Below, piece by piece: positions 4,391 through 18,907 of a stretch of 42,791 bases of DNA; the stretch's first letter is position 1, and every line of letters starts with the position of its first letter. The position numbers were made by a program, and so were the translations under genes. Source of the stretch: a virus; IMG/VR virus record IMGVR_UViG_3300048904_000146, positions 1 to 42,791 of that record. One strand, given 5' to 3'. The notes beneath the pieces were generated by a model that saw only the letters and a program-made list of their open reading frames with translations, was not told the origin of the DNA and did not search any database.

Positions 4391-4417
4391 GTCATTCTCC
4401 GTTACAGGCGTGTAGGG

Positions 4418-4431
4418 CTAACAGGTTATGC
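4418..4431 (-). promoter_or_regulatory. Motif copy S3: GCATAACctGTTAG (read on minus strand), 27 nt upstream of ATG 4390
   Basis: One of four sense-oriented copies of GCATAAC-N2-GTTAR; lies in the 54-bp gap between 4445 and 4390. Confidence 0.45.
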
Positions 4432-4444
4432 GCTGCTAGGCAAC

Positions 4445-4705
4445 CTACTTCAGCCCTTCACGGCGGTTCTCAAAATCAGCCGCATGTTGGCAGCAGAAGA
4501 GCTTGCCGACGCCGTGCCCCGCTTTGCGTTTGCATCGATAGAGGTGGAGACGTAGCGATCCCGCGCCTGCGTATCCCGCGCACTGCCCCTCCGACCACGT
4601 CTTAGGTTCGTGGTCCTCTATAAAGCACTCGTAGCGACGCGCTTTTATCTTCCCGATTTCATCACTTGACATAGCGTTTGTCCTCCCGATTTCATCACTT
4701 GACAT
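4445..4705 (-). CDS. Cys/His-rich small protein (86 aa, or 75 aa from the second in-frame ATG at 4672)
   Basis: Two identical start contexts GGGAGGACAAACGCTATG created by the 33-bp tandem duplication; Cys pattern C-x17-C...C-x14-CC-x-H. Confidence 0.55.
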   Translation of the reverse strand: MSSDEIGRTNAMSSDEIGKIKARRYECFIEDHEPKTWSEGQCAGYAGAGSLRLHLYRCKRKAGHGVGKLFCCQHAADFENRREGLK

Positions 4706-4720
4706 AGCGTTTGTCCTCCC
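4651..4720. repeat. 33-bp tandem direct duplication (2.1 copies) TCCCGATTTCATCACTTGACATAGCGTTTGTCC
   Basis: 4651-4683 and 4684-4716 identical, plus TCCC 4717-4720; spans polA stop codon and the start of the downstream gene. Confidence 0.9.
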
Positions 4721-6947
4721 ATGCGCTCACCGCCACCGGCATGTCGGCGCACCATGCGTCCGGCTCTGCCATGATGGCGCGATATTCTTCGGCGGAGCCA
4801 AACAGCTCGTCGACTTCCGACAGGTTCTCGTCGTGCACGGTGAGCACTAGCGGGTAGCCGCGCTCCTCCAGCCGGAACATGCTGCTCACCAGCTTGTCGC
4901 GCGCGAGCCCTTGCACCACGTTGTTGAACTGCAAGCCGCCGTAGAGGGCCAGCCCGTCGGTCCACTTCTTGGTGTAGCTGTCGACCGCGGCGTAGAGCAC
5001 GCGCACTTTCTTGCGGCCCGCGTCGTCCTCGGTCATGTCGAGGCGCGGCATGGCGTAGGAGATCACGCGGCCGCTCGGCAGGCGGCAGTAGAGGAACCCG
5101 TTGGCCGCCAGGTACATCACCCGGCCTTGCAGCACCGGCACCTTGAGCCCCGGCGTCTGTACCGCAGCGATCGCCGCATCCTGCAGATCCCACCAGGCTT
5201 GCACGATATGCGGGTGCGCGGCACGCCAGGCGTTGACGACGCACTTCACGCCGGTCCACGTCTCATGGTCCAGGCCGCGGCTGTCGGCGACCGAGTAGCG
5301 CATCCAGGTATCGTGCCACGTCTCGAGATCGATCGCCGCCTTGGCCGCGGCGGCCACCTCGGCAGGCTTGATCATGTAGACGGCGGCCATGTTGATGTAG
5401 GCGCCGACGCTGCCCTGGTAGCCTAGCGCCAGCTCCTGCACCTTGCCGATCTGGCGCATGAAGCTCTTCTTCGGCATCGTCGCGATGTCGACGCCGAACG
5501 ACCGGGCATAGGACAGGTTGTAGAGGTCGTAGCCGATGCCGGCGTCGAACTGGCGGAATGCCTCGAGCTTCCACGCCTCGCCCGCGATCCAGGCGGCGCC
5601 GCGCCCCTCGATGTTGCTGAAGTCGCCGGAGACGAACTTCTTGCCGGGCGCGGCGATAAGCATCGCGCGCATGCACTTTGCCACCGCCTCCAGCGGCGGG
5701 CCGACGATCATCTCGATCGCATCGACGATCTCCTTGGCGCTGCGCGGCAGCGCGAGCAGGTCGAGGATCATCATGATGTCGGGCAGATCCTCGGCGTCGA
5801 AGCGGAGGAAGTTCTGCGGCTGGATCAGCCGGCCCGCCCACCGCCCGGTGGCCGCGCCGTGGTACGCCAGCGAACCGCGCACGCGCTGGTCGGCGCACAC
5901 GCAGTTCAGCATGGCCTTGAACTTGGCGGTCGACGTCTTGCCGGCCGCGCGCCGCAGGCGAATCGCCTCTTCGGCGGTGCTGTCGCCCATGATGGACGAC
6001 ATCAGCACGATCTCTTCGACTTCGCCCTTGGCGACGCTCTCGCACGGGATGCCGCGCTTGTTCAGCCAGGCGACCAGCTTGGCCGTCTCCGAGCACTTCC
6101 GCACGTCGCCGTCGGTGAGCCACCACATATGGTCGTCGGCGCGCTTCAGCGCCTCGGTCACGACGGCCAGGGCGTGCTCGACCGACTTCACGTCGATCAT
6201 GACGCCGCGGTCGTTGATGCGCTGGTCGAGCTCCCACACGCGCCGCTCTTCGGGAGATAGGGCCGGAATGGACCTATCCACGTCCGTCTCGGTGAGCACG
6301 TCCTGGTCGCAATATTCCTGCAGCCGCTCGACGCGCTCGGCGTCATCCCACCACACGACCGTGCCGTCGGGGTCGATGCGGCGCGGCTTGCACATCCGCA
6401 TCATCAGCGCATGGCCGTCCTTGTCCTTCTGCATCGGCGTCTTCAGCGCCCGCCCCAGCTGGTCGAGCCCGGCGGGCAGCGCCAGCGCGACGGCGCGCGC
6501 CATGGTGCAGTCCTGCTGCTCGACGACCAGGCGCGGCCAGTGTCGGGGGGCCTTGGCGTTCCACAGGTTGCGCTCGAACCCCGCATGGTGCGCGACGACC
6601 TTGCCGCCGGCGGCGACGTGATCGAGCAGCTCCTTGGGGTCTTTGTCGCCCGGTCGCCAGCGCTGCACCGGGCCGCTATCGCCGAGCCGCCACGACATGC
6701 AGATTATGCCCGTCGTGTGGTGCTCGGCGTAGCGGTAGACCCCGGCTTTCTTCAGGTCGACCGTCGAGCGTGTCTCGAAGTCTATGTGGGCTTCAATATT
6801 CGGCGCCGATCTGCCGGCGAAAGCTATTCGAGGCACAGGAGCCGGCGCAGGAGTTGGCGAGCCCAAAGACTCTCGGCTCCAACCATCGACGCCAAACTCA
6901 TGCCGTCGCTCGTAGAAGCCTTCTCCTTGGTACCCGCCGCCACTCAT
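4695..6947 (-). CDS. Family A DNA polymerase with N-terminal 3'-5' exonuclease domain
   Basis: Exo I HIDFETRS; motif A VSGDFSNIEGR; motif B RQIGKVQELALGYQGS; motif C LTVHDEN; ATGA overlap with upstream gene stop supports ATG 6947. Confidence 0.92.
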   Translation of the reverse strand: MSGGGYQGEGFYERRHEFGVDGWSRESLGSPTPAPAPVPRIAFAGRSAPNIEAHIDFETRSTVDLKKAGVYRYAEHHTTGIICMSWRLGDSGPVQRWRPGDKDPKELLDHVAAGGKVVAHHAGFERNLWNAKAPRHWPRLVVEQQDCTMARAVALALPAGLDQLGRALKTPMQKDKDGHALMMRMCKPRRIDPDGTVVWWDDAERVERLQEYCDQDVLTETDVDRSIPALSPEERRVWELDQRINDRGVMIDVKSVEHALAVVTEALKRADDHMWWLTDGDVRKCSETAKLVAWLNKRGIPCESVAKGEVEEIVLMSSIMGDSTAEEAIRLRRAAGKTSTAKFKAMLNCVCADQRVRGSLAYHGAATGRWAGRLIQPQNFLRFDAEDLPDIMMILDLLALPRSAKEIVDAIEMIVGPPLEAVAKCMRAMLIAAPGKKFVSGDFSNIEGRGAAWIAGEAWKLEAFRQFDAGIGYDLYNLSYARSFGVDIATMPKKSFMRQIGKVQELALGYQGSVGAYINMAAVYMIKPAEVAAAAKAAIDLETWHDTWMRYSVADSRGLDHETWTGVKCVVNAWRAAHPHIVQAWWDLQDAAIAAVQTPGLKVPVLQGRVMYLAANGFLYCRLPSGRVISYAMPRLDMTEDDAGRKKVRVLYAAVDSYTKKWTDGLALYGGLQFNNVVQGLARDKLVSSMFRLEERGYPLVLTVHDENLSEVDELFGSAEEYRAIMAEPDAWCADMPVAVSAWEDKRYVK

Positions 6948-7300
6948 GCCTTGGACTCGCCGACAATATCGACGCGGGCACTGCCGATCGGCCCCAACGG
7001 CAGCTGCGGCGTCGAGGTGTCGACGCAGCGATCTTCCGCCAGCTTGGCATAGCCCTGAATGTCGTGCCAGTTGTCGGTGTAATTGGGGTCACCCGAGATG
7101 ATGCGCGCGATCTTGTCGGCGATGACGGTGAGCGCCTGGCGCTTGACGCTATCGAGCTTCGCCCAGGGGTTGACGGGCTGGCCGTTCTCGTACTTGCGGA
7201 AGCCGCGCATCGCGTCCTGCAGATCCTGCGCGAGTTCGGCGTGGTCGGTGAAGTCGCCATAGCGCGCGCCGCGCTCGGCCAAGGTGTTGTCTACGCTCAT
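6944..7300 (-). CDS. Conserved phage protein, DUF6378-like (118 aa)
   Basis: ERGARYGDF...ADKIARIISGDPNYTDNWHDIQGYAKL matches my recollection of the R..YG ... K.aR ... D.w.Di.GYa.L pattern; SD ACGGAGCAGAA upstream. Confidence 0.65.
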   Translation of the reverse strand: MSVDNTLAERGARYGDFTDHAELAQDLQDAMRGFRKYENGQPVNPWAKLDSVKRQALTVIADKIARIISGDPNYTDNWHDIQGYAKLAEDRCVDTSTPQLPLGPIGSARVDIVGESKA

Positions 7301-7382
7301 GGTTCTGCTCCGTTTCTGCGCGGCTTCGTGTTAGGCCTATACCCGCGCCGAGCCCTGGCCTTGGGCGCCATCCCTTACGGGA

Positions 7383-8060
7383 TCAGAACAGGCCGGCCGG
7401 GTTGACGGCCGCTGCCTGCGCGCTGGTGTCGATCGCGACGCCGGCGAAGTCAGCACGCGGATCGCTGCTGCCCCCGCCGAGGTTGCGGTCGTCGGCAATC
7501 TTCATGATACCCTGCAGCCCGTAGCTGACACCCTTCTTCATCGTGGCGTCGAACGTGAACGGCCGCAACACGAAGAGATACCAGGCGCCGGACGTGATCA
7601 GCGCCGGATCGACGATAGGCGCACCCTGCGCATTTACGGCATAGGGCGCCCGCTGGTCGGCGGTGGCCGTGATGAAGATGCCGCCCGGCGTGTAACCTTC
7701 GAGGTTCAGCTTCTCGTCCTGACGCCGGAACGGCGTGTGCAGGGTGGGGCCGCCGACCTGACCGGCGTTCGGCCACTTGGCGAGCGCGGTTTCCGTCGCC
7801 CCCTGCTTCAGGATCGAGATATCCGCGGCCGGCGGGAACAGCGCGGTGGCGCTGAACTTGCCGCCGATCTGCCCGTTGGCCGTCTGCTTGATCGGCGCGC
7901 GGGTGAGCACGTGCTGCATGAAGCTGCCGCGCACCGGGCCGGTGCGGTAGTTGCCATTCTCCACGCCATTCTGATCGACGATCTTCATGCACGGGAATTT
8001 CGCCCACATGTCCTCGATCCACTTGGGATCCATGTCGGAGGCGTTCATCTGAAACGTCAT
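7383..8060 (-). CDS. ssDNA-binding protein, DUF2815 family
   Basis: ...PFRRQDEKLNLEGY...IVDPALITSGAWYLFVLRPFTFD...KGVSYGLQGIMKIADDRNLGGGSSDPRADF parallels the DUF2815 pattern; sits between DUF2800-type nuclease and polA as in the known replication module. Confidence 0.85.
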   Translation of the reverse strand: MTFQMNASDMDPKWIEDMWAKFPCMKIVDQNGVENGNYRTGPVRGSFMQHVLTRAPIKQTANGQIGGKFSATALFPPAADISILKQGATETALAKWPNAGQVGGPTLHTPFRRQDEKLNLEGYTPGGIFITATADQRAPYAVNAQGAPIVDPALITSGAWYLFVLRPFTFDATMKKGVSYGLQGIMKIADDRNLGGGSSDPRADFAGVAIDTSAQAAAVNPAGLF

Positions 8061-8121
8061 AGTCTCGATTCCTTGTTCTCGGTGTGAAAGATCCGCCCCT
8101 AGGCTAGCGGTTTGCCTATCT

Positions 8122-8367
8122 CTATGCGCGTTCGGCGCTGTGGTGCTCCTTGGCCGACTCTACGCTGCGCCTCGGCGCCCATAGCCCCTCTTCGTCTCGG
8201 ATAAGCTGAGACACAGGCAACCACAGCAGCCAGCGATAATACCGAACCTGAACGGCTTTCGCCGTCATGCGAATGGGTTCGCTAGTCAAGCCGAGATAGC
8301 CCCTCGGCCGGCGTAGGCGAACCTCTATGCCGTGCTGGTCCCGCTGCATGGCAGGACCGTCTTTCAC
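8122..8367 (-). CDS. Hypothetical protein (81 aa from GTG 8367; 75 aa from ATG 8349)
   Basis: GTGA overlap with nuclease stop; GC3 somewhat lower than neighbours. Confidence 0.45.
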   Translation of the reverse strand: MKDGPAMQRDQHGIEVRLRRPRGYLGLTSEPIRMTAKAVQVRYYRWLLWLPVSQLIRDEEGLWAPRRSVESAKEHHSAERA

Positions 8368-9671
8368 AGCTGAACTCCTGCGAAATCCGCGGCCGGCCCG
8401 GCGGCAACAGCATCCCGCCGATCGGTGTCGGGGGCGATGGTCTGCCCCGAACTGTCCTTGAGGGTGAAGCGCAGCGACAGATCGTCGAGCGCCTCCTTGC
8501 GCGCAGCCTTGTCGGCTGCGGGGATCTTGGCCTTGATCAAGCGCTCGGCCTCGGTGATTGTCGCCAGCTTGCGCGGGAAGACGTCATCGGCGTCGATGCC
8601 ATAGACCATCTCCAGATAGCCGGCGATCTCGCTCTCGTTGTCGATCCACTTCCGGCGGCCGATCTTGTCGACCAGCTTGAAGCCCGGCACCGGCACGCCC
8701 TGCTGCAGCAGCCCGAAGGCGAAGTCGCGCACCTGCTGTGCCCACGCCTCCAGCACGCCGAGCCCTTGCAGCACCTGGCCGATGCGCGCGGCGTCCATGT
8801 CGGCAGGCTTGGGCAGCGCCTTGGGGCTCATGCCCGCGATGTCGTGGAAGTCGACGCCGATCGACGCGACAACCTCCTGCTGCTTGGCAGGGCAGATCGC
8901 GGCCGCCGCGCACCAGCGGCAGTGCGATCCGGGGTTGAGCCCCGCAACCGGAACGGATCCGCTATCGCGAAGCCGTACCTGCCAGGCTTTCGCCTCCGTC
9001 ACGGCCTGCTCGATCGTGCCGATGAACTCGATCAGCTCGAACGTGTCCATCGCCCATCGCTTGACGCCAGGCACGTCATAGTCGTCGGCGTCTCGGGCGC
9101 GCGGCTGGACGATGACGAGCTCGATCTCGGCCAGGTGCCAGTCGGGATGCGACAGCGCCGCGCCCGCGCCGTAGAACTTCAGCTGTGGGCTGTCTTCGAC
9201 CGACACGCTGACGCCCTGGCCGTGCTTGTAATCGAAGATCACCAGGCGGCCGAGCGACGGGTGATAGACCAGCGCGTCGTTGGCGCCGAACACCTCGCCC
9301 GGCTCGGCCGACGAGATCGGCAGCTCGAACCGCTCTTCGATGAGCAGGATCGCGTCGGCGCTGCGGCCGAGCTCTTCGGCAACCGCGTCAAGATAAACCT
9401 GCACGGCGGCCGCCATCTCTTCGGTGACGATCTTCTTCGAGGCGAGCTTGGGGCTCGTGATCTCGTCGCCGATTCGCGTCGAGGCGTCGAAGCAGCGAGC
9501 GACGAGGCATTCTTCGGCCAGCTGGTGGGCGAAGGTGCCTTCGTCGGCATAGCTGCTCGACGCACGCTCTGGCACTGTCGCACAAAGGGCGACAGATCCA
9601 GGGCATGCGATGACGCGGCCGATGACCGAGCCACCGAAGGCGCTGTGTGCTTTGTTGGCGTGCTCGCTCAT
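8364..9671 (-). CDS. PD-(D/E)XK nuclease, DUF2800 family (Cas4-like Cys cluster)
   Basis: IFDYKHGQG core, N-terminal Cys ACPGS and C-terminal CRWCAAAAICP; SD ACGGAGA upstream of ATG 9671. Confidence 0.85.
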   Translation of the reverse strand: MSEHANKAHSAFGGSVIGRVIACPGSVALCATVPERASSSYADEGTFAHQLAEECLVARCFDASTRIGDEITSPKLASKKIVTEEMAAAVQVYLDAVAEELGRSADAILLIEERFELPISSAEPGEVFGANDALVYHPSLGRLVIFDYKHGQGVSVSVEDSPQLKFYGAGAALSHPDWHLAEIELVIVQPRARDADDYDVPGVKRWAMDTFELIEFIGTIEQAVTEAKAWQVRLRDSGSVPVAGLNPGSHCRWCAAAAICPAKQQEVVASIGVDFHDIAGMSPKALPKPADMDAARIGQVLQGLGVLEAWAQQVRDFAFGLLQQGVPVPGFKLVDKIGRRKWIDNESEIAGYLEMVYGIDADDVFPRKLATITEAERLIKAKIPAADKAARKEALDDLSLRFTLKDSSGQTIAPDTDRRDAVAAGPAADFAGVQL

Positions 9672-9697
9672 GGCTCTGTCTCCGTTCTCTGCGTGGA

Positions 9698-10351
9698 TCA
9701 GGCGGTCTTGGCGGCGACGAGCGCGTCGAGCACCTTGCGCATGATTGTGGGATCGTCCTTCGCCTTCTCGGCAACCGACGGCGAGCCGCTCGTCAGGCTC
9801 TTGCAGCCCGAGCTCTCTTCGAGGGTCTTCATCGCCACGCCCGCCGACTTGGCCTTCAGCAGATCGGACATCGCGTCCTTGAGCTGCTGCATCGTCACCT
9901 CTCCCGCAGCTGCCGCAGCGGTGTCAGCCGGGCTCGACGCCGCCGGCGCGGCGGCGACGGTTTCTTGGGTCGAAGTGGACGTAGATGGGGAAGCCGCCGC
10001 ATCGGCACTCCCACCATTCTGCGCGAAAGGGTCGACACCTTCCTGCTTGGGCGGGATGCTCTCGGCGGGCGGCGCGTCGGTGCCGCCGGGGGTCGGCTGC
10101 GGCTCGGGCGTGTGGACCGGCTCGATCGGCGTGCCGTCGGGGGCCTGCGTCGGCGCAGCAGCTTCGGTCTTCTTGCCGCGGCCGCGCGTCACGGGCTTGT
10201 CCGTAGCGGCCACGGCTTCCTGCGCGGCAGGCGTTGCGGCGATCTCAGGCATGATAGCCGCAGCGGCCGTCATCGTATTGCCGGCGAAGCGCGCGATCAG
10301 CTCGTTGAACTCGGTCACGCTTTCGGCGTGGATCTCAAGACGAATGGGCAT
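9698..10351 (-). CDS. Low-complexity Ala/Pro/Thr-rich protein (217 aa), function unknown
   Basis: ATG 10351 (MPIRLEIHAES...) with SD GGAGA; long disordered middle, structured N and C ends. Confidence 0.6.
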   Translation of the reverse strand: MPIRLEIHAESVTEFNELIARFAGNTMTAAAAIMPEIAATPAAQEAVAATDKPVTRGRGKKTEAAAPTQAPDGTPIEPVHTPEPQPTPGGTDAPPAESIPPKQEGVDPFAQNGGSADAAASPSTSTSTQETVAAAPAASSPADTAAAAAGEVTMQQLKDAMSDLLKAKSAGVAMKTLEESSGCKSLTSGSPSVAEKAKDDPTIMRKVLDALVAAKTA

Positions 10352-10374
10352 TGGGTGATCTCCAGTGTTGAGGC

Positions 10375-10388
10375 TTAACGTGTTATGC
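10375..10388 (-). promoter_or_regulatory. Motif copy S2: GCATAACacGTTAA (read on minus strand), 23 nt upstream of ATG 10351
   Basis: In the 53-bp gap between 10405 and 10351; preceded by TCGACA. Confidence 0.45.
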
Positions 10389-10404
10389 GTTGTCGATGAG
10401 GCTG

Positions 10405-10944
10405 TCAACCCCGTTCGACGGCAAGATGCTTTGCCATAGCGAGAGCGATCATACGCGCCATATAATCGACGTCGCGTGGCGACCAGTGCCGGTGCCGATC
10501 GTCGCCCATAGCGTAAGCCACGCTGCCGTTGCGGCTTTCCAGCACGATACGGAGTTGGCGCCGCATCTTGTCGGCTTCCGGCCCGTCAATCCGTGCCAGG
10601 TAGATCGCCGCCTCGATCACGTTTTCGGTGCGTACGAACTGCGGTGCCTCTTCCGATCCTCGGGGGCCAGCAGCCATCAACCGGACCGGCGGAAGCATTT
10701 GGAGCGCGCCGCCGAAAGCGCGAATGTCGCGCACCTCGCGCCGCATCACCTGCTCATTAAAGGCACTCTCCGGCCCTAGCAGATGCGCGATGTCTTCTGC
10801 CCACGTCGATAACCGGCTGCGTAGCTCCTGCGCTTCACGGCCGCGGGCGGCGCTACGGTTTAAGGCCTCCGATAGCAGGTCGTTTTTAGTCGCGATCTCC
10901 TCGCGCATATGCCGACGCTGGTTGCGCCCAAATCTTTTAGCCAT
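10405..10944 (-). CDS. Hypothetical protein (179 aa; MAKRFGRNQRRH...)
   Basis: ATG 10944 with SD ACGGAGAAG; high GC3. Confidence 0.65.
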   Translation of the reverse strand: MAKRFGRNQRRHMREEIATKNDLLSEALNRSAARGREAQELRSRLSTWAEDIAHLLGPESAFNEQVMRREVRDIRAFGGALQMLPPVRLMAAGPRGSEEAPQFVRTENVIEAAIYLARIDGPEADKMRRQLRIVLESRNGSVAYAMGDDRHRHWSPRDVDYMARMIALAMAKHLAVERG

Positions 10945-11116
10945 GATCTTCTCCGTTGTTAAAGCGAACGACGTCAAGTCGCATATCTTTCGGCGGGCAG
11001 CGAGAGGGCTTCTTCGGCTGGATCGCCATGAGACGCAACACCTCGCCCGATCGGCCGGCCAGCGCCGCGCGCACGCGCTGCTCGATCTCCGCTTTCGGCA
11101 GGTACGAGTTACCCAT
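10937..11116 (-). CDS. Hypothetical small protein (59 aa)
   Basis: ATG 11116 six nt after GAGGAGAA; 8-nt overlap with next gene. Confidence 0.5.
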   Translation of the reverse strand: MGNSYLPKAEIEQRVRAALAGRSGEVLRLMAIQPKKPSRCPPKDMRLDVVRFNNGEDHG

Positions 11117-11194
11117 CCTCACTTCTCCTCTGGAGGTGTGATACGGTCTCCGATCTTGCGGAAATCATCGTCTTCGAAGGCGCATGGATAGCCA

Positions 11195-11293
11195 TTAAGC
11201 CACCATGCGCCCTGATCCCACTGGCCGAACGCCGCCAGGCACCGCACGGCTGTCGATTATATCCGACGGCTTGCCGCATTCGGGGCACTTCAC
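11195..11293 (-). CDS. Micro-ORF with CPEC zinc-ribbon half motif (32 aa); possibly the 5' part of a frameshifted or split gene
   Basis: GTGA overlap with stop of 11290..12090; VKCPECGKPSDIIDSR...; GC3 signal moves to another frame after about codon 20. Confidence 0.3.
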   Translation of the reverse strand: MKCPECGKPSDIIDSRAVPGGVRPVGSGRMVA

Positions 11294-12090: not shown

Positions 12091-13426
12091 GGTGGTTCTC
12101 CGTTCCGTAGTTTTCGATGGATGCGATCGCCGCGGTCTTCCGCGCAACCGTCTCACTCACAACCTCGTCGATCGAGCCCGCAAGCGAGATGAAGCGCGCA
12201 TTGACCCTGCGCCCCTGGCCGATCCGGTGGACGCGCATCAGCGCCTGCGCGTTGTCTGCCGGCGCCCAGCTGCTCTCGAACATGTCGAGATCCGACGCCG
12301 CGGTGAGCGTCAGCCCCGTGCCGGCCGCGCGGATGTTGCCGACGAACACCCGGTGCGCGGGATCGTTCTGGAACGACTGCACGGCGGCCATCCGGTCGGC
12401 CTCCTTGGTCTTGCCGTCGACCAGCGTCGTCCACAGCCCTTCGCCCGCTAGATAGCTGGTGATGATCTCCGCGGCGCGCGTGTGCCAGGTGAAAATCACC
12501 ATCTTGTCGCGGCCGTTCTTCATCTCCTCGGCGATCAGCTTGGCATATGCCGGCGCCTTGGCCTCGCCGACCAGGCGGCGCAGCGTGGCGATGTGCTGCG
12601 CGTCGAGAAACGACAGACCGCCCTGCTCGATCGCGTCGACGATCGCCTGCTCGAGCCCCGGCCACTCCTTCAGCAGTGCCTTGATCTCGCCGGTGTCGCC
12701 GTCGACCGTGGTCGTCGTGAGGTGGATCGGCGGCAGGTTGAGCCCCGCCTCGCGCTTTGAGCGCTTCAGCCGGAAGGCGTCGAGCGCCATCTTGAGCTCG
12801 GGGATCATCTCGTCGCGCGGCGTCTGCTTCGCGCTGAACGTGCCCATCCGGCTCTTGAAATAGCGTGCGGTGAACGCGGTCAGCCCGAGGGGCGTGCCGC
12901 CGACGAAGCGCAGCCACGGCCACACGTCGACCGGATCGTTCGGCATCGGCGTGCCGGTGAGGAACCACACATGTCCTGCCCAGCGCGCCAGGCCGCCGGC
13001 GCCGTCGCAGTGCGTGCCGAGCATCGCCCTGGTCCGCGCCGAGGTGGGCGTCTTGAGATAGTGCGCCTCGTCGAAGATCAGGGCGTCGAACACGTCGCCT
13101 TCGATCTTGTCGGCCCATTTGGCGGCGAGCTCGTAGGACAGCAGCATGACGTCGGCGCGGCCCTTCAGCCAAACGCCCAGGTCGTGGATGCTCTTGGCCT
13201 TGAGCACCTTGCGCGGGATCTTCGCGAACTTCTTGATCTCGCCGTGCCATACCTCGCGAACGGCTGCGGGGCACACGATGATCGCGCGGCGCGCGCCGAT
13301 CCGGTCGAGCGCGCCGATCGCCTGCGCGCTTTTCCCGATTCCCATTTCATCGTGCAGCCCGGCGCGGCTTTTCGACGCCAGGAACTCGGCACCGGTTACC
13401 TGGTAGGGCATCAGTTGCAGGGTCAT
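12074..13426 (-). CDS. SNF2-family (DEAD/H-like) helicase
   Basis: Motif I DEMGIGKS, motif II FDEAHYLK, motif III FLTGTP, motif V NIRAAGTGLTL, motif VI QALMRVHRIGQ; start MTLQLMPYQ at 13426 preferred over 13501. Confidence 0.9.
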   Translation of the reverse strand: MTLQLMPYQVTGAEFLASKSRAGLHDEMGIGKSAQAIGALDRIGARRAIIVCPAAVREVWHGEIKKFAKIPRKVLKAKSIHDLGVWLKGRADVMLLSYELAAKWADKIEGDVFDALIFDEAHYLKTPTSARTRAMLGTHCDGAGGLARWAGHVWFLTGTPMPNDPVDVWPWLRFVGGTPLGLTAFTARYFKSRMGTFSAKQTPRDEMIPELKMALDAFRLKRSKREAGLNLPPIHLTTTTVDGDTGEIKALLKEWPGLEQAIVDAIEQGGLSFLDAQHIATLRRLVGEAKAPAYAKLIAEEMKNGRDKMVIFTWHTRAAEIITSYLAGEGLWTTLVDGKTKEADRMAAVQSFQNDPAHRVFVGNIRAAGTGLTLTAASDLDMFESSWAPADNAQALMRVHRIGQGRRVNARFISLAGSIDEVVSETVARKTAAIASIENYGTENHHDASN

Positions 13427-13457
13427 AGCGCCCGCACCCGCTGGTTCGTATCGTCGT

Positions 13458-13664
13458 TCATGACTGAGTCTCCAAGGCGCGGCGAACCGCAAGGCCCTCA
13501 CGGTTCAGCACAATGTGGAAGTGCCCCTTATCCTTGATGATCGTTGACCAGAGGGGGAAGACCAAGGAGGACACCGCGTCCTCGTGGGAGCCTTGACCTG
13601 TTCTGACGAGGCGCTGCTGTGTTTTGCTCAGCTTGCTTGCGATCTCCCGCGCTTCGTCGTTCAT
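13458..13664 (-). CDS. Hypothetical protein (68 aa)
   Basis: ATGA overlap with upstream stop; high GC3. Confidence 0.6.
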   Translation of the reverse strand: MNDEAREIASKLSKTQQRLVRTGQGSHEDAVSSLVFPLWSTIIKDKGHFHIVLNREGLAVRRALETQS

Positions 13665-13846
13665 GACTGCACACTCCGGAGGGCTGCGACAGAATGATCA
13701 AGGGCGGCGGCGATCTTTCGCGCCCGATCTTCCGAGGGGAAACCTTCTGCACCGCAATCGAGCAAATATCCGTCATCCAAGCGAACGAACCATACGGTCC
13801 CGACGCCGCAGTCCGCGCGATGCTGCACCTTGCAAATCCGATCCAT
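13661..13846 (-). CDS. Hypothetical protein (61 aa)
   Basis: ATG 13846 six nt after AGGAGG (GTG 13849 alternative); overlaps upstream stop. Confidence 0.6.
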   Translation of the reverse strand: MDRICKVQHRADCGVGTVWFVRLDDGYLLDCGAEGFPSEDRARKIAAALDHSVAALRSVQS

Positions 13847-14157
13847 CACGCCCCTCCTGCGATCTTGGCACCACGGAGGGCTGCACGGGCCTGTTCCAGC
13901 GCATCGGCCTTGATGGTGCAGTCGTGGTCACCGTTCGGCTTGCAGGGCGACAGGTGCGTGGCTTCGTAGACCATGCGCTCCAGCGCCTCCACCAGCGGCT
14001 TTACTGCTTCTGTGCGGTGGCGGGCGAACCACTTGAGATCGTCGATATCATCCCATTCGCCAGCCCTGATGTTATCGGCGTCTCGCTGGCTCACGCGCCC
14101 GATACGGACGAAAAGATCAGCCATCGCCTCACGATCGGCCTGTGTAACCTCAGCCAT
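13846..14157 (-). CDS. Hypothetical protein (103 aa; MAEVTQADREAMADLF...)
   Basis: ATG 14157 with SD AAGGAGAG; high GC3. Confidence 0.65.
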   Translation of the reverse strand: MAEVTQADREAMADLFVRIGRVSQRDADNIRAGEWDDIDDLKWFARHRTEAVKPLVEALERMVYEATHLSPCKPNGDHDCTIKADALEQARAALRGAKIAGGA

Positions 14158-14170
14158 TGCTTTGCTCTCC

Positions 14171-14347
14171 TTAGAGATAGATGACGACACCATAGCCGCG
14201 CTCCTTCAGGGCTTTCGGGGCGTCTTGGACACTCCAGACAGCGCCATCAAATTCACCCACCGCCGGGTCTTGATCATGGGCGCACACTGCAACCTTGGCA
14301 GTCGCGGGCAGCTTCTTGAGTTCCGCGATCAACTTGCGAACGGTCAT
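14171..14347 (-). CDS. Hypothetical small protein (58 aa; MTVRKLIAELKKLP...)
   Basis: ATG 14347 two nt after upstream stop; common small-phage-protein N-terminus. Confidence 0.6.
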   Translation of the reverse strand: MTVRKLIAELKKLPATAKVAVCAHDQDPAVGEFDGAVWSVQDAPKALKERGYGVVIYL

Positions 14348-14349
14348 GC

Positions 14350-14559
14350 TCACCGGCTTTGCTCCTGATGGGTGGAGAGGGTGGGGGGGGGTTCCTCGAT
14401 CCAGTGCGTGGGCTCCCACTCAAGGCAGTCTTCCGGCTCGGTGGCCCAATAGTAGCCGCCGTAATCCGCCTCTGCTTTCTGGGCCTTGGCTACGTTCTCG
14501 CCATCGGTGACGAATGCCACCTGCCACATCGGGCAAGTTTCGATCAGCTTCCAACCCAT
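14350..14559 (-). CDS. DUF551-like small protein (69 aa)
   Basis: MGWKLIETCP... and ...PTHWIEEPPP resemble the W..IE..P / THW..lP.pP pattern of DUF551; TGATG junction with upstream gene. Confidence 0.6.
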   Translation of the reverse strand: MGWKLIETCPMWQVAFVTDGENVAKAQKAEADYGGYYWATEPEDCLEWEPTHWIEEPPPTLSTHQEQSR

Positions 14560-14762
14560 CACTTCGCCTCTCCCTTCACGATAGCCGCGATACGCACCGA
14601 GCGTGCGCGGCGGCTGTTGCACCAAGCCGGTTGGGACAGGGCGACATCGACGGGGCGAACTGTTGCGCGATCTCCGCTAATGCGCTCGACCACAGCGTCG
14701 TAATCCAAGCCGCGCGCTGGCCCGGCGCGCACGACTACCTTGTCGCCTACGGAAACTGTCAC
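14559..14762 (-). CDS. Hypothetical protein (67 aa)
   Basis: GTG start in GTGA overlap with upstream micro-ORF; high GC3. Confidence 0.55.
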   Translation of the reverse strand: MTVSVGDKVVVRAGPARGLDYDAVVERISGDRATVRPVDVALSQPAWCNSRRARSVRIAAIVKGEAK

Positions 14763-14860
14763 TTCGCGCCCTCCCCCATCTTGAAGATGCTCTCCACGAT
14801 CTCCGGGGAGATGGTAGGATGGGCTGCCTTGGCGAGGTCGAGAGGGGTGAAGTCAGTCAT
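14759..14860 (-). CDS. Micro-ORF (33 aa; MTDFTPLDLAKAAHPTISPEIVESIFKMGEGAK)
   Basis: ATGA overlap with RuvC stop and GTGA overlap with next start; high GC3; not in the >=60-aa track as such. Confidence 0.35.
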   Translation of the reverse strand: MTDFTPLDLAKAAHPTISPEIVESIFKMGEGAK

Positions 14861-15513
14861 ATCTTTGTGAACCCATCTGTTCTGCACGGCACGTTGCTGG
14901 AGCGCGGCGGCATACCCATCCGTGCCCGGGTGGCCTGCGCACTGATCACCTTGCGCTCCGCGGCGGCCTGCCGGGCCTGCGCGGCGCGCGCAATATCCGT
15001 CTCGTCGCGCGGCGTGCGCTGCGTGAACTGCCCTTTGACCCAGCGTTCGCCATAGAGCGCCAGCATGGCCGCTTCGGCCTTGCCGTCGTCCTTGACGCGC
15101 GGCCACAGGTGGCGGTGCGCGGGCAGCATCTCGCTGGCGCGGTGGCGCGCCGCGGTCTTGTCCTTCGGCACCTTGAGCGCCGCTTTCCACACCGCAGGCG
15201 GAACCGTTTCCAGCGCCAGCCCTGCAGCCATCGCGGCCATGCGGACAGCGCCATAGCCCTGGCCGAAGCTGAAGGCGGCCGGCGCGCTCTGCCCGGGAAT
15301 GCCGCCGACCTGCTCGATGAACAGGTGGGTAGCGCCGAGCGCCGCAAAGGTCTGGAGCAGCGACAGCACTTCGCCTTCGTCGATCACGTCGCGCAAGGCC
15401 CGGCCCTTGATCTGGCGCTTCTGCGTGGGCATCGGCACGACTTCAAACCGGCCGCTCTCCCAATCGTTGAAGCAGAAGGCACCTTCGATGCCGGGGTCAC
15501 AGGAGACGATCAC
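14857..15513 (-). CDS. RuvC-like Holliday junction resolvase
   Basis: VSCDPGIEGA..., FIEQVGGIPGQSAPAAFSFGQGYG, PAVWK, KDDGKAEAAMLALYG; start moved to GTG 15513 (GGAGG 7 nt upstream) instead of ATG 15543, which lacks an SD. Confidence 0.85.
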   Translation of the reverse strand: MIVSCDPGIEGAFCFNDWESGRFEVVPMPTQKRQIKGRALRDVIDEGEVLSLLQTFAALGATHLFIEQVGGIPGQSAPAAFSFGQGYGAVRMAAMAAGLALETVPPAVWKAALKVPKDKTAARHRASEMLPAHRHLWPRVKDDGKAEAAMLALYGERWVKGQFTQRTPRDETDIARAAQARQAAAERKVISAQATRARMGMPPRSSNVPCRTDGFTKI

Positions 15514-15546
15514 CAAAAATCCTCCAAGGTTGATCCCCGGCATATA

Positions 15547-15560
15547 CTAACACGTTATGC
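15547..15560 (-). promoter_or_regulatory. Motif copy S1: GCATAACgtGTTAG (read on minus strand), 33 nt upstream of GTG 15513, immediately after a strong hairpin
   Basis: Preceded by TTGTCA; lies in the 116-bp gap 15514-15629. Confidence 0.45.
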
Positions 15561-15566
15561 ATGACA

Positions 15567-15599
15567 AGGCCCGCCGCGACGGAAAATCGCGGCGGGCCT
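15567..15599 (-). terminator. Perfect 13-bp-stem hairpin AGGCCCGCCGCGA / TCGCGGCGGGCCT with 7-nt loop, 30 nt after stop of the HTH gene
   Basis: Arms 15567-15579 and 15587-15599 are exact reverse complements; no long U tract follows on the minus strand. Confidence 0.5.
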
Positions 15600-15629
15600 G
15601 AAAACCCCATGATTGCGGATAGCGCTTCC

Positions 15630-16283
15630 CTAGTCGAGAAGACCCACCGCGGCGTTCAAGTCGCGTGCCAGCTCGGCCATGAGGATCTGGCGCATTTCGA
15701 TCTCGGCGATCATGCGCCGCACCTGCTTGACGTTGAGCTTTTCGGCCAGGCGCTTGGTCGCGTAGGCCTGTGCGGTGGTGCGCGCGATGCCGAGCAACTC
15801 GGAGACTTCGCGGTCGTTGCAGCCGGTCGATTCCTTGAACCGCCCAATGAACGACGCGCCCAGATCGGTCTTATTCCGCGGCCGGGGCGCCGCTGGAGCA
15901 CGATCCGGGCTCTTGGCAGGGGTTATAGCCTCGGCGGCTGTTTCGGACTCCAGCGGCGCCGTGGGGGCAATTCGCTGCGCGCCGCACGTCATGCACCGAC
16001 CATTGCCGGCAACAGGCTCCTTGCCGCCGCACGACGCGCCCTGCAGCCCGTTGAGGCGGCACGGCTCAATACCGGGCACCGAAGCGACAGGAACGGCTGC
16101 AGCACTGGCCGCTGCGGTCAGGGTCTCGGCTGCTTCGATTGCAAGGGCGATCTCTAGCGGATCGTCGCAAGGCGTCGCGAAACCGCCGAGGAGCGCAGCC
16201 GCTTCAGCGGTGCGCTCCCCTTCGTTCATCAGCGGGAAGGTGGGATCGGCGGCAAGCGCGGCCCCTGCTTCGTCTGGCGTCAT
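15630..16283 (-). CDS. Zn-ribbon plus helix-turn-helix DNA-binding protein (217 aa), last gene of the early block
   Basis: C-x12-C-x13-C-x2-C segment (EPCRLNG...SCGG...RCMTCG) and C-terminal HTH NDREVSELLGIARTTAQAYATKR; ATG 16283 preferred over GTG 16298. Confidence 0.7.
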   Translation of the reverse strand: MTPDEAGAALAADPTFPLMNEGERTAEAAALLGGFATPCDDPLEIALAIEAAETLTAAASAAAVPVASVPGIEPCRLNGLQGASCGGKEPVAGNGRCMTCGAQRIAPTAPLESETAAEAITPAKSPDRAPAAPRPRNKTDLGASFIGRFKESTGCNDREVSELLGIARTTAQAYATKRLAEKLNVKQVRRMIAEIEMRQILMAELARDLNAAVGLLD

Positions 16284-16284
16284 C

Positions 16285-16452
16285 TCAATTCCCTTCACAA
16301 TACCAGGCGTCGGCGTTCCAGCGCGTGCCCGGCTGCGCAGCGGCGCAGTCCTTGTCCCATTTCGCCTGTAGCGCCAGGCCGCAGCAAAGCAGCGTGAAGC
16401 CTGACAGGATCCACACCGCGACGGCCACGCGGCGGCGATGGCGGGCGCTCAC
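16285..16452 (-). CDS. Micro-ORF encoding a single-pass membrane peptide (55 aa)
   Basis: GTGA overlap with upstream stop; VSARHRRRVAVAVWILSGFTLLCCGLAL...; high GC3; below the ORF-track cutoff. Confidence 0.4.
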   Translation of the reverse strand: MSARHRRRVAVAVWILSGFTLLCCGLALQAKWDKDCAAAQPGTRWNADAWYCEGN

Positions 16453-16595
16453 TTGCGCGGCGCTTTCATAGCCGCCGTCACCGAACGGCGGATCGTCTGC
16501 TGTACCAAGGCGCGGCCGCGCAGATGGTTGATAGCCTGCATGCGATCCATGCCGGTTTCGCGCATCACGCGCTCGATATCCTGTTCCTTGGGCAT
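16449..16595 (-). CDS. Micro-ORF (48 aa; MPKEQDIERVMRETGMDRMQAINHLRG...)
   Basis: ATG 16595 directly downstream of repeat copy A, which supplies SD ACGGAGAAACG; high GC3; below the ORF-track cutoff. Confidence 0.5.
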   Translation of the reverse strand: MPKEQDIERVMRETGMDRMQAINHLRGRALVQQTIRRSVTAAMKAPRK

Positions 16596-16598
16596 TGT

Positions 16599-16665
16599 CG
16601 TTTCTCCGTTGGTGCCATCATAGCCCCGCAGCGGCCAGCGCCGCGGGGCGTAGGGGCATCAAATC
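16599..16665. repeat. 67-bp intergenic repeat, copy A (stop codon + hairpin + SD)
   Basis: Identical to 16878-16944; contains hairpin 16623-16649, which on the minus-strand RNA is fully paired with one G-U. Confidence 0.9.
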
Positions 16666-16874
16666 TGTTCGTACTCAGCGATCAGCCAGCCCTTGACGCG
16701 GATCATTTCTTGTTCGTCGTGGCAGAATGCCATGAACGCATCTTCGAGATCGGCTTCGGGGTGGTGGCTGATGTGCAGTTCCTGCGCGCCGCTGCTGATG
16801 AACGCCTCCGTCCAGCCGAGGCGCGTGCAGTCCGCATCGCAGGTAGGGCGGACGATCGGGAAGTTGTGGGACAT
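16659..16874 (-). CDS. Hypothetical protein (71 aa) bracketed by the two 67-bp repeats
   Basis: ATG 16874 after SD of repeat copy B; stop inside copy A; high GC3. Confidence 0.7.
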   Translation of the reverse strand: MSHNFPIVRPTCDADCTRLGWTEAFISSGAQELHISHHPEADLEDAFMAFCHDEQEMIRVKGWLIAEYEQI

Positions 16875-16877
16875 GAC

Positions 16878-16944
16878 CGTTTCTCCGTTGGTGCCATCAT
16901 AGCCCCGCAGCGGCCAGCGCCGCGGGGCGTAGGGGCATCAAATC
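16878..16944. repeat. 67-bp intergenic repeat, copy B
   Basis: Identical to 16599-16665. Confidence 0.9.
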
Positions 16945-17315
16945 GCGAAGGCGACGGTAAAGCCTGCGTCGCGTAGACGCGCGTCCCAGCTACGGCCGTC
17001 GTCCTTCTCGAAAGCGGTGAACAGCGCGCCGAGCGCCTTGCGCAAATCTGCGTCGCTGCCGCACTGACCGGCGATCGTGCCGGCCTTGGCGATGTTGACG
17101 ACTGCGGCTGTCACGGCTGCGGTCGCTTTGTCGTAGCCATAGCCGGTTGCGCGGCCCTTCTGCATCGTGGTGCCCCAGATGTGCACATAGGCGGTTGCAG
17201 CGGAGCCGTATTTGATGACGATGCGGCCGATGGCCTGGCCGTCGAGGATCAGCACGACAGCGGTGGTGTCCTTGGTGGCCTTGTCGAACTGCTCGTAGAT
17301 GTTGGTGGTAGCCAT
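16938..17315 (-). CDS. Hypothetical protein (125 aa)
   Basis: ATG 17315 with SD ACGGAGAAACG; stop inside repeat copy B. Confidence 0.7.
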   Translation of the reverse strand: MATTNIYEQFDKATKDTTAVVLILDGQAIGRIVIKYGSAATAYVHIWGTTMQKGRATGYGYDKATAAVTAAVVNIAKAGTIAGQCGSDADLRKALGALFTAFEKDDGRSWDARLRDAGFTVAFAI

Positions 17316-17390
17316 GATCGTTTCTCCGTTGCTGACACAGCCTATGTAGCAAATATGATATGTTGGTGCAAGCCCCTCATAGCAAAAATG

Positions 17391-17735
17391 TTAGAAGAGG
17401 CTTTCAGGGTCGATATACCGCTCTAGTATGTGGCGGATGCGCGGCCCTGTCGGCCACCCGCCCGGCTGCTTGCCTTTGCGGCACCCCTTGTCGCGGCGGT
17501 AGAAGTTGCCAGTGCTCAACCCGCTGGTGAAGGTGAAGCTCTTGCCGCAGTCCATGCACCGCGTCTGCCAGGTCATGACGGCGCTCTCCTCGCCTGTCTT
17601 GGTGCGATGGGGCTCGACGCGCAGCAGGGTGAAGGCTTGGAGCGTGTCTATCTGGTGGGTCTGCTCGTTGCGGCGCTTGAAGATGACGACGCTGAAGGGT
17701 TCAGGCATGTCACTTAGCTCGAAGTACAAGGGCAT
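17391..17735 (-). CDS. First leftward gene: hypothetical protein (114 aa) with CMDCG...C segment, C-terminus ...IDPESLF
   Basis: ATG 17735 with SD GGAGAACC preferred over 17876; high GC3. Confidence 0.65.
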   Translation of the reverse strand: MPLYFELSDMPEPFSVVIFKRRNEQTHQIDTLQAFTLLRVEPHRTKTGEESAVMTWQTRCMDCGKSFTFTSGLSTGNFYRRDKGCRKGKQPGGWPTGPRIRHILERYIDPESLF

Positions 17736-18012
17736 GTTGGTTCTCCATGTTGCGGCCACGGCTCTACTCGAACCCCGTGAAAACCGCAACACTCCTATAC
17801 TCTTCTCTCTTGCTAGCAGAGACGGGGCGTCACTACCGTTCGCACCGCCGTCCTCACTCACGTTCGACGTCGCCACGGAGCGTCACCCGGATAGCTGCAG
17901 GTAGTAACCGGTAACGGGTGGTAATTTAGAAATTACAATGCGTTTTTGCTACGAGGTGTGCGGCTGCTGCCGTGGCCGGTGCTCAAATGCGCCTGTTTGG
18001 CCGGATATCCTC

Positions 18013-18042
18013 AGCATATCAGCGCCTTAGCGTGATGCTCAA
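18013..18042 (-). promoter_or_regulatory. Candidate leftward promoter TTGAGC-N18-TATGCT
   Basis: -35 = reverse complement of 18037-18042, -10 = reverse complement of 18013-18018; back-to-back with the rightward promoter. Confidence 0.3.
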
Positions 18043-18075
18043 CGCGCGCCTGTCTGGCGCTGCGTTCTCGTTGCG

Positions 18076-18104
18076 TTGACGGAATAGGGCCGATTTGGTA
18101 CTAT
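18076..18104 (+). promoter_or_regulatory. Candidate rightward sigma70-type promoter TTGACG-N17-TACTAT
   Basis: -35 18076-18081, 17-nt spacer, -10 18099-18104; about 95 nt upstream of terS ATG. Confidence 0.55.
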
Positions 18105-18200
18105 TTGCTCTTCGGCGACCCTCTACGGCTTCCAAACTCAGTGGGTTTTTGGCCGATTTGGACGTTCATCAACGCACCCAGCTTTTACAGGTGAAAGCAC

Positions 18201-18878
18201 ATGGCTCTCCTAGCACCGCATAACAGCTTCGACACCGATAATGCCGAAAAACCGCGCAAGCGAGGCCGCCCAAAAGGCTCTCGCAACAAGCTGGCGCAAC
18301 GCTTCTTCGAGGATCTCTACGAAGCCTGGGAAGAGCAGGGAGAGAGCGCCATTGCCCGCGCTGCCTTCCACGATCCAGTCGCCTTCGTGTCCATCGTGGC
18401 GCGCTTGATGCCGCAGAAGCTCGAAATCACGCAGCCCACCGACGGCATCAGCGATGAGCGCCTCGCCGAGATGCTCGATTATGCTGAGCGAATGGCAGCG
18501 CTGCGGGACAGCGCCGCAGCAGGCGACCAGGCGCGCGTCATCGAAGGGCGTGCGCACGTGTTGAGCGACGAAAACGGGGTCGCAGCAGAGGTGAACGGGA
18601 TGGGGGGCGGGGGGCCCGATGCGGGTTACCTCCTTGGCGGGGAAAAGACCGCACACACTATTGCGGCCGCACCGGCCGAGACGGCCCCCTCCCCACACAA
18701 GCATAACGGGTTAAGCAATCCCCTCTCCCCTCCATATAGCCTTTCTGCCACAACCCCGCTTCCCCATCCCGTCGGAAAACCACACCCTACTCCCGACCAC
18801 CTGGTCGAACAGCGCAACCGAAATCGGCTTTCCGATATCGCCCGCAACGACCCCATTGACCCCGCCTCGCTTTTCTGA
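18201..18878 (+). CDS. terS: Terminase small subunit (DUF5681-like N-domain) with atypical Pro/Gly-rich C-terminal extension
   Basis: N-terminus KPRKRGRPKGSRNKL...FFEDLYEAWEEQGE...ARLMPQKLEI typical of small terminases of GC-rich proteobacterial phages; position upstream of terL. Confidence 0.7.
   Translation: MALLAPHNSFDTDNAEKPRKRGRPKGSRNKLAQRFFEDLYEAWEEQGESAIARAAFHDPVAFVSIVARLMPQKLEITQPTDGISDERLAEMLDYAERMAALRDSAAAGDQARVIEGRAHVLSDENGVAAEVNGMGGGGPDAGYLLGGEKTAHTIAAAPAETAPSPHKHNGLSNPLSPPYSLSATTPLPHPVGKPHPTPDHLVEQRNRNRLSDIARNDPIDPASLF
18701..18714 (+). promoter_or_regulatory. Motif copy S4: GCATAACggGTTAA (plus strand) inside the terS 3' extension, about 235 nt upstream of tRNA-Gln
   Basis: Fourth copy of GCATAAC-N2-GTTAR, again in the sense orientation of the local genes. 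Confidence 0.4.
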
Positions 18879-18887
18879 TGTTATGCC
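18852..18887. repeat. 36-bp direct repeat, copy 1 (last 8 codons and stop of terS plus 9 nt)
   Basis: CCCATTGACCCCGCCTCGCTTTTCTGATGTTATGCC identical to 19018-19053. Confidence 0.9.
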
Positions 18888-18907
18888 TCTGAGCTAGGGC
18901 AGGCTCT

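Follow-up and report, generated by a model that had tools for sequence, protein, structure and literature searches.

The stretch of viral DNA analysed here (IMG/VR record IMGVR_UViG_3300048904_000146, 42,791 nt; the window) contains four copies of a 14-nt element, GCATAAC-N2-GTTAR, which is best explained as a dyad-symmetric operator embedded in host sigma-70-type promoters at the heads of the non-early transcription units; a further copy is located inside the small terminase gene terS. The operator would be recognised by a phage-encoded dimeric DNA-binding protein, most likely through the C-terminal Xre-type helix-turn-helix (HTH) domain of the protein encoded at 15630-16283 (gp15630-16283), and binding would occlude RNA polymerase, so that the replication operons are repressed or throttled. 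For this whole model, in which a dimeric HTH protein of the phage represses host sigma-70-type promoters through a dyad operator, we estimate a probability of about 0.6. From the sequence, it is likely that the element is a protein-bound palindromic operator, and it is probable, to a lesser degree, that the Xre-type protein is its binder and that its regulatory effect is negative.

An exact-pattern scan of both strands for GCATAACNNGTTAR returned exactly four matches in the window and none in 100 dinucleotide-preserving shuffles. When up to two mismatches were allowed, the only additions were the reverse-strand readings of two of the sites and two weak matches. The palindromic core TAACNNGTTA also occurred exactly four times, at the same four places. 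The four positions given in a preliminary description of this DNA were confirmed by the exact scan, together with the comparison against shuffled controls that it had proposed. Its distances to the start codons downstream of copies 3, 2 and 1 (33, 23 and 27 nt) are correct as well, and copy 4 lies 233 nt from tRNA-Gln.

The copies fall into four classes of sites defined by the neighbouring genes. Copy 1 (GCATAACctGTTAGcc, 4416..4431 with the motif at 4418-4431, minus strand) is an exact match at the head of the winged-HTH-like gene 4133-4390 and the primase gene (class 1, before the gene for an 85-amino-acid (85-aa) protein and the primase gene), with orthologous sites in the relatives L001, L002, L083 and L115. 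Copy 2 (GCATAACacGTTAAgc, 10373..10388, motif 10375-10388, minus strand), also exact, heads gene 9698-10351 (class 2) and the recombination/replication genes and is orthologous in eight close relatives. Copy 3 (GCATAACgtGTTAGta, 15545..15560, motif 15547-15560, minus strand), again exact, lies past the regulator gene and before the resolvase gene (class 3), at the head of the resolvase-to-helicase operon; its orthologues in eight relatives are usually found directly past a hairpin. Copy 4 (GCATAACggGTTAAgc, 18701..18716, motif 18701-18714, plus strand) is placed in the variable linker of terS (class 4) and has no -35 hexamer. All copies are oriented with transcription as had been read before, but this orientation rests only on the flank, with GCA on one side, the core being symmetric. 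Since there are only four independent site classes, chance alone would produce such co-orientation in about 1 in 8 cases.

The half-site GCATAAC was found eight times in the window, against 2.5 expected. The four additional half-sites are located at 18218(+), 18880(-), 19046(-) and 20661(-), and three of them cluster around terS and the tRNA; those at 18880 and 19046 are parts of one 36-bp duplication, and the isolated strong half-site at 18218..18224 (plus strand) covers terS codons 6-8. A near-match in the early region, TAACCGGTAA (17905-17914), was rejected as an operator because it is not conserved as one in relatives.

In its ideal form the motif reads GCATAAC-N2-GTTATGC, a degenerate palindrome. 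TAAC-N2-GTTA was invariant across 33 non-redundant sites of the close clade, and position 13 was A in all 33 although the search had left that position free. The relative L118 carries a perfect 7-2-7 palindrome, GCATAACGGGTTATGC; L115 and L083 have the forms CTAACGCGTTAG, which is palindromic, and ACATAACCCGTTAT, and L006 and L119 carry GCATAAG-GC-TTTATGC and CATAAAGGTTTAT. In distant relatives (SNF2 protein 41-50% identical), TAAACATGTTTA or TAAACAAGTTTA was found directly past the helicase gene, which is the class-2 position, and a second copy of the palindrome precedes the resolvase operon. The perfect 5-2-5 forms of the distant clade are of the TAAAC-N2-GTTTA type, and TAAACNNGTTTA stands at the class-2 place in at least 14 distant relatives. 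The inverted half-sites TAAC/GTTA mentioned in the preliminary description form a palindromic core, with perfect forms in L118, L115 and the distant clade. An RNA-level hairpin formed by the motif was rejected, as a loop of 2 nt cannot form and the other possible stems consist of A/U pairs only.

About ten metagenomic genomes of related phages carry the motif at matching gene boundaries (motif-bearing relatives: L001/L085, L002/L127, L003/L113, L083, L084, L086, L087, L115-L118 and L121). Four copies are present in L001/L085 and three, at shared gene boundaries, in L002 plus L127 (nearly the whole genome), with zero copies in the 21 kb of structural genes of L127. Extra sites follow directly past terS in L084 and L115, and full sites lie at or just upstream of the terS start in L117 and L118. 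Conservation in related phages had been suggested as a check, and the orthologous sites at the same boundaries bear out the view of the motif as a conserved regulatory DNA element at operon boundaries. HNH endonuclease genes adjoin operators in some relatives (L113 10753-11271, L116 10726-11244, L115 6408-7103); in L113 and L116 the HNH insertion sits between the regulator gene and the class-3 operator.

Promoters were predicted from sequence, and the geometry of a site was taken as the distance from the -35-like hexamer to the motif. At copy 1, TTGCCT (4438..4443, minus strand) is located 6 nt upstream of the motif and the right half-site gives the predicted -10 hexamer TAGCCC; TTGNNN was found 6-7 nt upstream in 5/5 class-1 relatives, three of which score at least 4/6 against TTGACA. 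At copy 2, TTGACA (10403..10408, minus strand), overlapping the stop codon of the upstream open reading frame (ORF), is separated by 17 nt from TAACAC, with the left half-site as -10. TTGACR (TTGACA or TTGACG) stands 14 nt ahead of the motif, which corresponds to N17 to TAAC, in 6/8 class-2 relatives, and TTGACR-N17-TAAACA was found at this place in at least 14 distant relatives. Nearly all relatives share TTGACR-N17-TA(A)AC. Class-3 sites have TTGNNN 6-7 nt upstream in 8/9 cases, the exception being the window's own copy 3, where TTGTCA (15562..15567, minus strand) lies 1 nt upstream and no clear -10 hexamer was assigned. In classes 1 and 3 this spacing leaves 17-18 nt between the -35 hexamer and the TA of the right half, so that the -10 reads TAGCCC, TAGTGC or TAGTCC, and at the sites past terS the hexamer is 16 nt upstream in 2/2, giving N17 to CATAAC. 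The register shift from 14 to 6 is 8 nt, which is the spacing of the two TA dinucleotides in the palindrome. Since the -10 hexamer begins with one of these two TAs, the predicted -10 or start site is always overlapped by the operator. This overlap with the core promoter applies to the predicted promoters of copies 1-3 and their orthologues, not to copy 4, and such a position suggests that binding should occlude RNA polymerase.

In L089, L096 and L097 a separate -10 hexamer (TAATAC, TAAGGT and TAACTT; TTGACA-N17/18) stands ahead of the palindrome, and the palindrome of the second site in these relatives spans about -7 to +10. At the same gene boundary, Ralstonia phage RpY1 carries TTGCGG-N17-TATATT and lacks both the palindrome and an HTH homologue, indicating that the promoter is older than the palindrome and separable from it. 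A canonical sigma-70 early promoter on the minus strand was not found in the divergent region 17735-18200.

These registers bear on the possibility that no dedicated factor exists and that the motif is simply the -10, discriminator and start region of strong host promoters, for example with the TANAWC-type -10 known from alphaproteobacteria. CATAAC fits this type at 5/6 positions, good TTGACA hexamers are present upstream, and the L001 variant CTATAAC is nearer to TATAAT. However, the spacing from the -35 hexamer to the motif is 1, 5-7 or 14-16 nt, or the hexamer is absent, so that the -10 cannot be one and the same hexamer of the motif throughout. This explanation also leaves the conservation of GTTA in the second half and the two-fold symmetry unaccounted for, and copy 4 is intragenic and has no -35; we regard it as highly improbable.

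A phage-specific promoter, which the preliminary description had considered, likewise does not agree with the geometry. As in promoters of the T7 type, T4 late promoters (TATAAATA) and those of phage sigma factors, a conserved 14-nt element stands at the heads of transcription units only. Unlike in those systems, the core is palindromic, it occurs in at least three registers relative to the host-type -35 and downstream of the -10 in three distant relatives, and a search of ~50 ORFs of the complete genome revealed no recognisable gene for an RNA polymerase or a sigma factor. Consensus sequences for sigma-54, extracytoplasmic function (ECF) sigma factors, CtrA, LexA, DnaA, IHF, Zur, LacI-family regulators and TyrR do not fit, and that of NtcA (GTA-N8-TAC) matches some distant-clade sites, not the window motif.

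The candidate regulator gp15630-16283 (217 aa, 15630..16283, minus strand) is encoded by the last gene of the early operon, and its HTH was recognised by AlphaFold2 (AF2), Foldseek and iterative search. Its conserved N-terminal part (residues 1-62) is a helical domain, and a Zn ribbon with four Cys residues comes next. The C-terminal segment 145-216 holds the Xre-type HTH, with the recognition helix RTTAQAY (168-175), and a long helix (185-216) that, in the predicted model, could mediate dimerisation. The Zn-ribbon residues C75, C85, C97 and C100 were invariant in 28 homologues. The predicted local distance difference test score (pLDDT) of the AF2 model was >90 in the N-terminal domain and 91-98 for residues 141-216. 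Foldseek searches with the HTH returned only Xre-type matches, namely SinR, C.Esp1396I, C.BclI and HipB (probability 0.8-1.0, root-mean-square deviation ~2.3 Å). The iterative search revealed the HTH domain in every relative, in proteins of 217-470 aa. The N-terminal domain and the Zn ribbon occur in the close clade only, whereas the distant clade and L087 carry an unrelated region of ~270 aa. Comparison of L087 and L088-L111 with the window showed domain shuffling within this regulator family, one member having a weak DNA-ligase-like N-terminal match.

The recognition helix and the operator change together. Helices of the form x-T-[AIV]-Q-A-Y go with GCATAAC operators and those of the form x-T-[YF]-[NTV]-N-[WY] with TAAAC operators, and L087 combines an N-terminal region of the distant type with a Q-type helix and a GCATAAC operator. 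Moreover, the Q172N regulators, which occur in L115 and L121 only, go with a central GC in 6/6 operators (TAACGCGTTA), compared with 1/27 elsewhere. The HTH fold, the presence in all relatives and the co-variation of helix and operator make the Zn-ribbon/HTH protein, named first among the candidates in the preliminary description, the best-supported candidate binder, and the change of the operator with the recognition helix of a phage protein makes recognition by a phage-encoded factor the most plausible.

The same co-variation bears on a host transcription factor, by which the phage operons would be plugged into a host regulon through the palindrome. In the literature, searches with the motif strings or for BcepC6B promoters turned up the AdcR box and FOXO sites but nothing on phages. 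The AdcR/ZitR box TTAACNNGTTAA, a streptococcal repressor operator at promoters, has the same palindromic core TAAC-N2-GTTA, and TAACNNGTTA is the core of this box (PMC11580457). However, AdcR is a zinc sensor of the MarR family from low-G+C Gram-positive bacteria (streptococci or lactococci), and the window has a G+C content of 65% with no MarR-family gene found in it. Furthermore, the operator varies between phage clades in step with the recognition helix of the phage HTH, and the G+C contents of the relatives are, by eye, very different, so that they probably infect different hosts while all keep a version of the site. The match to the AdcR box is a sequence look-alike only, and control by a host factor is very unlikely.

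The 85-aa protein encoded at 4133..4390 (minus strand), which had been put forward as a winged-helix candidate, is conserved in 21 loci, always between PolA and primase, and its C-terminal segment was read by eye as OmpR-like winged-helix. It is the weaker candidate and has no Pfam or Protein Data Bank (PDB) match. Its gene is usually translationally coupled, with no operator upstream outside the close clade, and it is more likely a replication protein than the binder. PDB sequence searches with both candidate proteins were uninformative. The third candidate, the OmpR-type protein 29287-29583, was rejected, since its gene lies in a strain-specific 2.1-kb insertion missing from L003, which bears the motif without it. 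This insertion (27488-29634), whose flanking genes are adjacent in L003 and L006, holds a 452-aa GDSL-lipase-like protein, two small ORFs and the OmpR-type winged-helix gene on the opposite strand. A 67-aa ORF at 14559-14762 gave a sub-threshold match to KOW (Spt5/NusG-like; E 0.003, 17.9 bits against a cut-off of 28.9).

Copy 4 provides direct evidence of selection on the DNA. It is not intergenic but lies in frame inside an ORF missed in the preliminary description, 18201-18878 (plus strand), which encodes a small terminase of 225 aa with tblastn matches at 31 loci upstream of terL. Relatives conserve the N-terminal 125 and the last 40 residues of TerS but vary in the linker that joins them. 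Within this linker, copy 4 is read as CAT AAC GGG TTA (H-N-G-L). Relatives keep the DNA motif, and the residues drift (H/Y/T-N-x-L). TTA accounts for 4/796 Leu codons in 26 genes; that of copy 4 is the only one in a well-supported gene, the other three all being in one doubtful ORF. The retained DNA motif, the drifting residues and the rare TTA codon indicate that the DNA and not the protein is under selection. The earlier view that the motif divides the genome into transcription modules agrees with the position of copies 1-3 at operon heads; copy 4, being intragenic and without a -35 in seven relatives, is not obviously the start of a module. The terS-internal site could be a roadblock, a looping partner or a late promoter, and binding at this promoter-less site could block or modulate read-through into the late genes.

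The region around terS contains further features. A sigma-70-like promoter without operator, TTGACG-N17-TACTAT (TG-extended; 18076..18104, plus strand), lies upstream of terS, within a stretch that does not align with relatives. The 466-nt non-coding divergent region 17735-18200 contains blocks conserved in relatives, among them the palindrome GTAATTT-AG-AAATTAC (17921-17936) and TTAC/GTAG repeats. The terS 3' end is repeated as a perfect 36-bp direct repeat (18852-18887 and 19018-19053), which brackets a hairpin with a 14-bp stem (18907-18941) and tRNA-Gln (18948-19021); this arrangement looks like a tRNA cassette inserted with target duplication. A second hairpin with a 13-bp stem (19109-19146), followed by AAUUUUA (to 19151), forms a terminator-like structure between terS and terL, upstream of a membrane-like ORF of 44 aa (19167-19301), with which the start of terL (GTG at 19298) overlaps.

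The position of copy 4 in a transcribed ORF, followed by the strong hairpins 18907-18941 and 19109-19146 with AAUUUUA before terL, is what might be expected if the motif acted on elongating polymerase as a roadblock or loading site, in the manner of mycobacteriophage stoperators or Q-type antiterminator sites, and controlled read-through of hairpins. The orientation of the sites with transcription and a candidate protein that joins a Zn ribbon to a DNA-binding domain would agree with this. The likeness to the stoperators bound by repressors of the L5 gp71 type extends to a short repeated co-oriented site, one copy of which is inside a transcribed gene, and to a single phage regulator that would govern many operons. 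The stoperators of L5 are reportedly 13 bp long, with about 30 sites. Cluster A mycobacteriophages have many stoperators distributed over the genome, which are intragenic, oriented and asymmetric sites to which a monomer binds (PMC9283540). Unlike these, the window motif has a palindromic core and only four sites in a complete genome, three of them on predicted promoters. Copies 1-3 are followed by start codons within 23-33 nt with no terminator between. Antitermination of the lambda Q type relies on a promoter that carries the binding element, a pause close to the promoter and a terminator further downstream. Here hairpins follow only copy 4, and no sequence similarity to Q-family proteins or L5-type repressors was found. 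A role on elongating polymerase has a very small probability.

The sign of regulation was weighed between repression and activation. Toward repression, the sites are centred at about -16 to +5 and their register to the -35 is variable. The closest known parallel to the proposed repressing operator, judged from sequence and predicted fold alone, is offered by the Cro/CI systems of the Xre family: an HTH_3/Xre-type domain, several operators per genome, imperfect 14-18 bp palindromes overlapping the -10, -35 or start of sigma-70 promoters (predicted ones, at copies 1-3, in the window), and co-evolution of operator and helix between relatives. Unlike Cro/CI operators, which come in tandem sets of three, those described here are single and one lies inside terS; the HTH is C-terminal, behind an N-terminal domain and a four-Cys Zn ribbon or, in distant relatives, the unrelated 270-aa region; and the phage lacks an integrase, a divergent repressor/cro pair and prophage copies.

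Several observations weigh against the proposed model. Concerning the protein, the E-values of the Foldseek matches to the HTH were 0.2 or worse, the Pfam HTH matches were below the gathering score (HTH_3/Xre-like sub-threshold in 6/7 family members), the co-variation of helix and operator represents two or three evolutionary events only, and gp4133-4390, a conserved putative DNA-binding protein, co-occurs with the operator in all relatives and is absent from RpY1 too. Concerning the site, the outer flanks are asymmetric, position 3 being A in 30/33 sites and the mirror position 14 being G in 22 and T in 2, and the strong half faces upstream in nearly all promoter-associated sites; a directional element would yield the same flank asymmetry. 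As the 33 sites stem from only four to six ancestral sites, shared asymmetry and orientation are weak evidence for directionality. A -35-like hexamer was found upstream of the class-4 site in 0/7 phages, leaving copy 4 without a promoter to repress. Concerning the biology, it is hard to see what a phage that lacks an integrase and prophage copies would gain from repressing its replication and late genes, and the genome logic suits an activator better, since the regulator gene ends the early operon and a strong hairpin insulates it from the promoters under its putative control. Finally, the promoters that would be regulated have poor -10 hexamers (TAACAC, TAGCCC) without the usual final T.

The main alternative, close to the preliminary description, is an activating or polymerase-redirecting role, in which the motif would be the recognition element of middle and late promoters and the early protein gp15630-16283 would bind it and recruit or remodel host RNA polymerase at defective -10 hexamers, including a -35-less promoter in terS, with its Zn ribbon and conserved N-terminal domain as the polymerase contact. 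The regulator gene is followed by a hairpin of -33.9 kcal/mol and then by copy 3, the palindrome-free RpY1 has an intact TATATT while the -10 hexamers of the palindrome-bearing promoters lack the final T, the asymmetric flanks share one orientation, no -35 is present at copy 4 in 7/7 phages, and no lysogeny functions were found. Two controller (C) proteins of restriction-modification systems, C.Esp1396I and C.BclI, rank among the closest structural counterparts of the C-terminal domain. C proteins are Xre-type HTH dimers that bind palindromic boxes located in promoters. They act as both activators and repressors, with activation possible when occupancy is low and repression when it is high. 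They consist of the HTH only, about 80 aa, and their paired boxes, which overlap the -35, precede the C-protein gene itself. The proteins considered here differ in their 217-470 aa, and their sites overlap the -10 at several operons. Activators are not known to work from positions of about -16 to +5, where the palindrome is centred. The motif moreover stands in several registers to the -35 and downstream of a separate -10 in distant relatives, and in these the palindrome heads the operon that contains the regulator gene, an arrangement more in keeping with negative feedback. We therefore consider activation unlikely, although it deserves more weight than any of the other alternatives, and retain repression of the replication operons as the probable function of the operator.

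The first 127 nt of the window (1-127) are identical to the last 127 nt (42665-42791), which indicates a complete circular assembly of ~42.66 kb; an ORF spanning the junction was read by eye as an M15-type peptidase endolysin. The G+C content is 63-69% (~65%). On the minus arm, small early genes extend from 17734 to 15630, followed by a hairpin and then by replication genes ending at 2217 (resolvase, SNF2 helicase, DUF2800 nuclease, Enc34-type single-stranded DNA-binding protein (SSB), PolA and primase-helicase). This hairpin (15567..15599, minus strand; 14-bp G+C stem, -33.9 kcal/mol, z -5.6, with a poor U-tract) lies at the end of the early operon. The plus arm encodes TerS, tRNA-Gln, TerL, portal, capsid, tail tube B and T7-type internal virion proteins, and its lysis genes cross the junction. 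The window is the genome of a podovirus with T7-like structural genes. Pfam and PHROGs searches of ~50 ORFs, a few of the smallest ORFs being left out, revealed no RNA polymerase, sigma factor or integrase, and Rfam identified a tRNA only. No prophage copies were found in 185,579 reference genomes, only mis-binned phage-sized contigs in metagenome-assembled genomes, and the phage is therefore probably virulent. No near-identical DNA was present among GenBank phages. Among cultured phages, Ralstonia RpY1, DU_RP_II and C22 and Burkholderia BcepC6B and KL4 come closest (31-41% protein identity); protein searches also reach pelagiphages, and all cultured matches are at or below 45% identity.

The principle of an HTH protein acting on a promoter palindrome is textbook, and in this respect the result is useful rather than surprising; unusual are the maintenance of an operator within terS and the shuffling of the N-terminal region in the regulator family. 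The present analysis offers a first concrete regulatory map, with operon starts, a controlling DNA element and a likely regulator gene, for a group of widespread uncultured phages of ~40-45 kb with T7-like virions, without their own RNA polymerase and with a shared DUF2800 / Enc34-SSB / PolA / primase replication module. Because the operator-regulator pairs co-vary between clades, they constitute a ready-made test set for HTH specificity and might be used as orthogonal switches. It is a long shot that the Zn-ribbon/HTH protein is a new kind of transcription factor that redirects host RNA polymerase, via the palindrome, to middle and late promoters with defective -10 hexamers; if this were true, including the -35-less late promoter inside terS, it would give polymerase-less T7-like podoviruses a temporal programme of gene expression.

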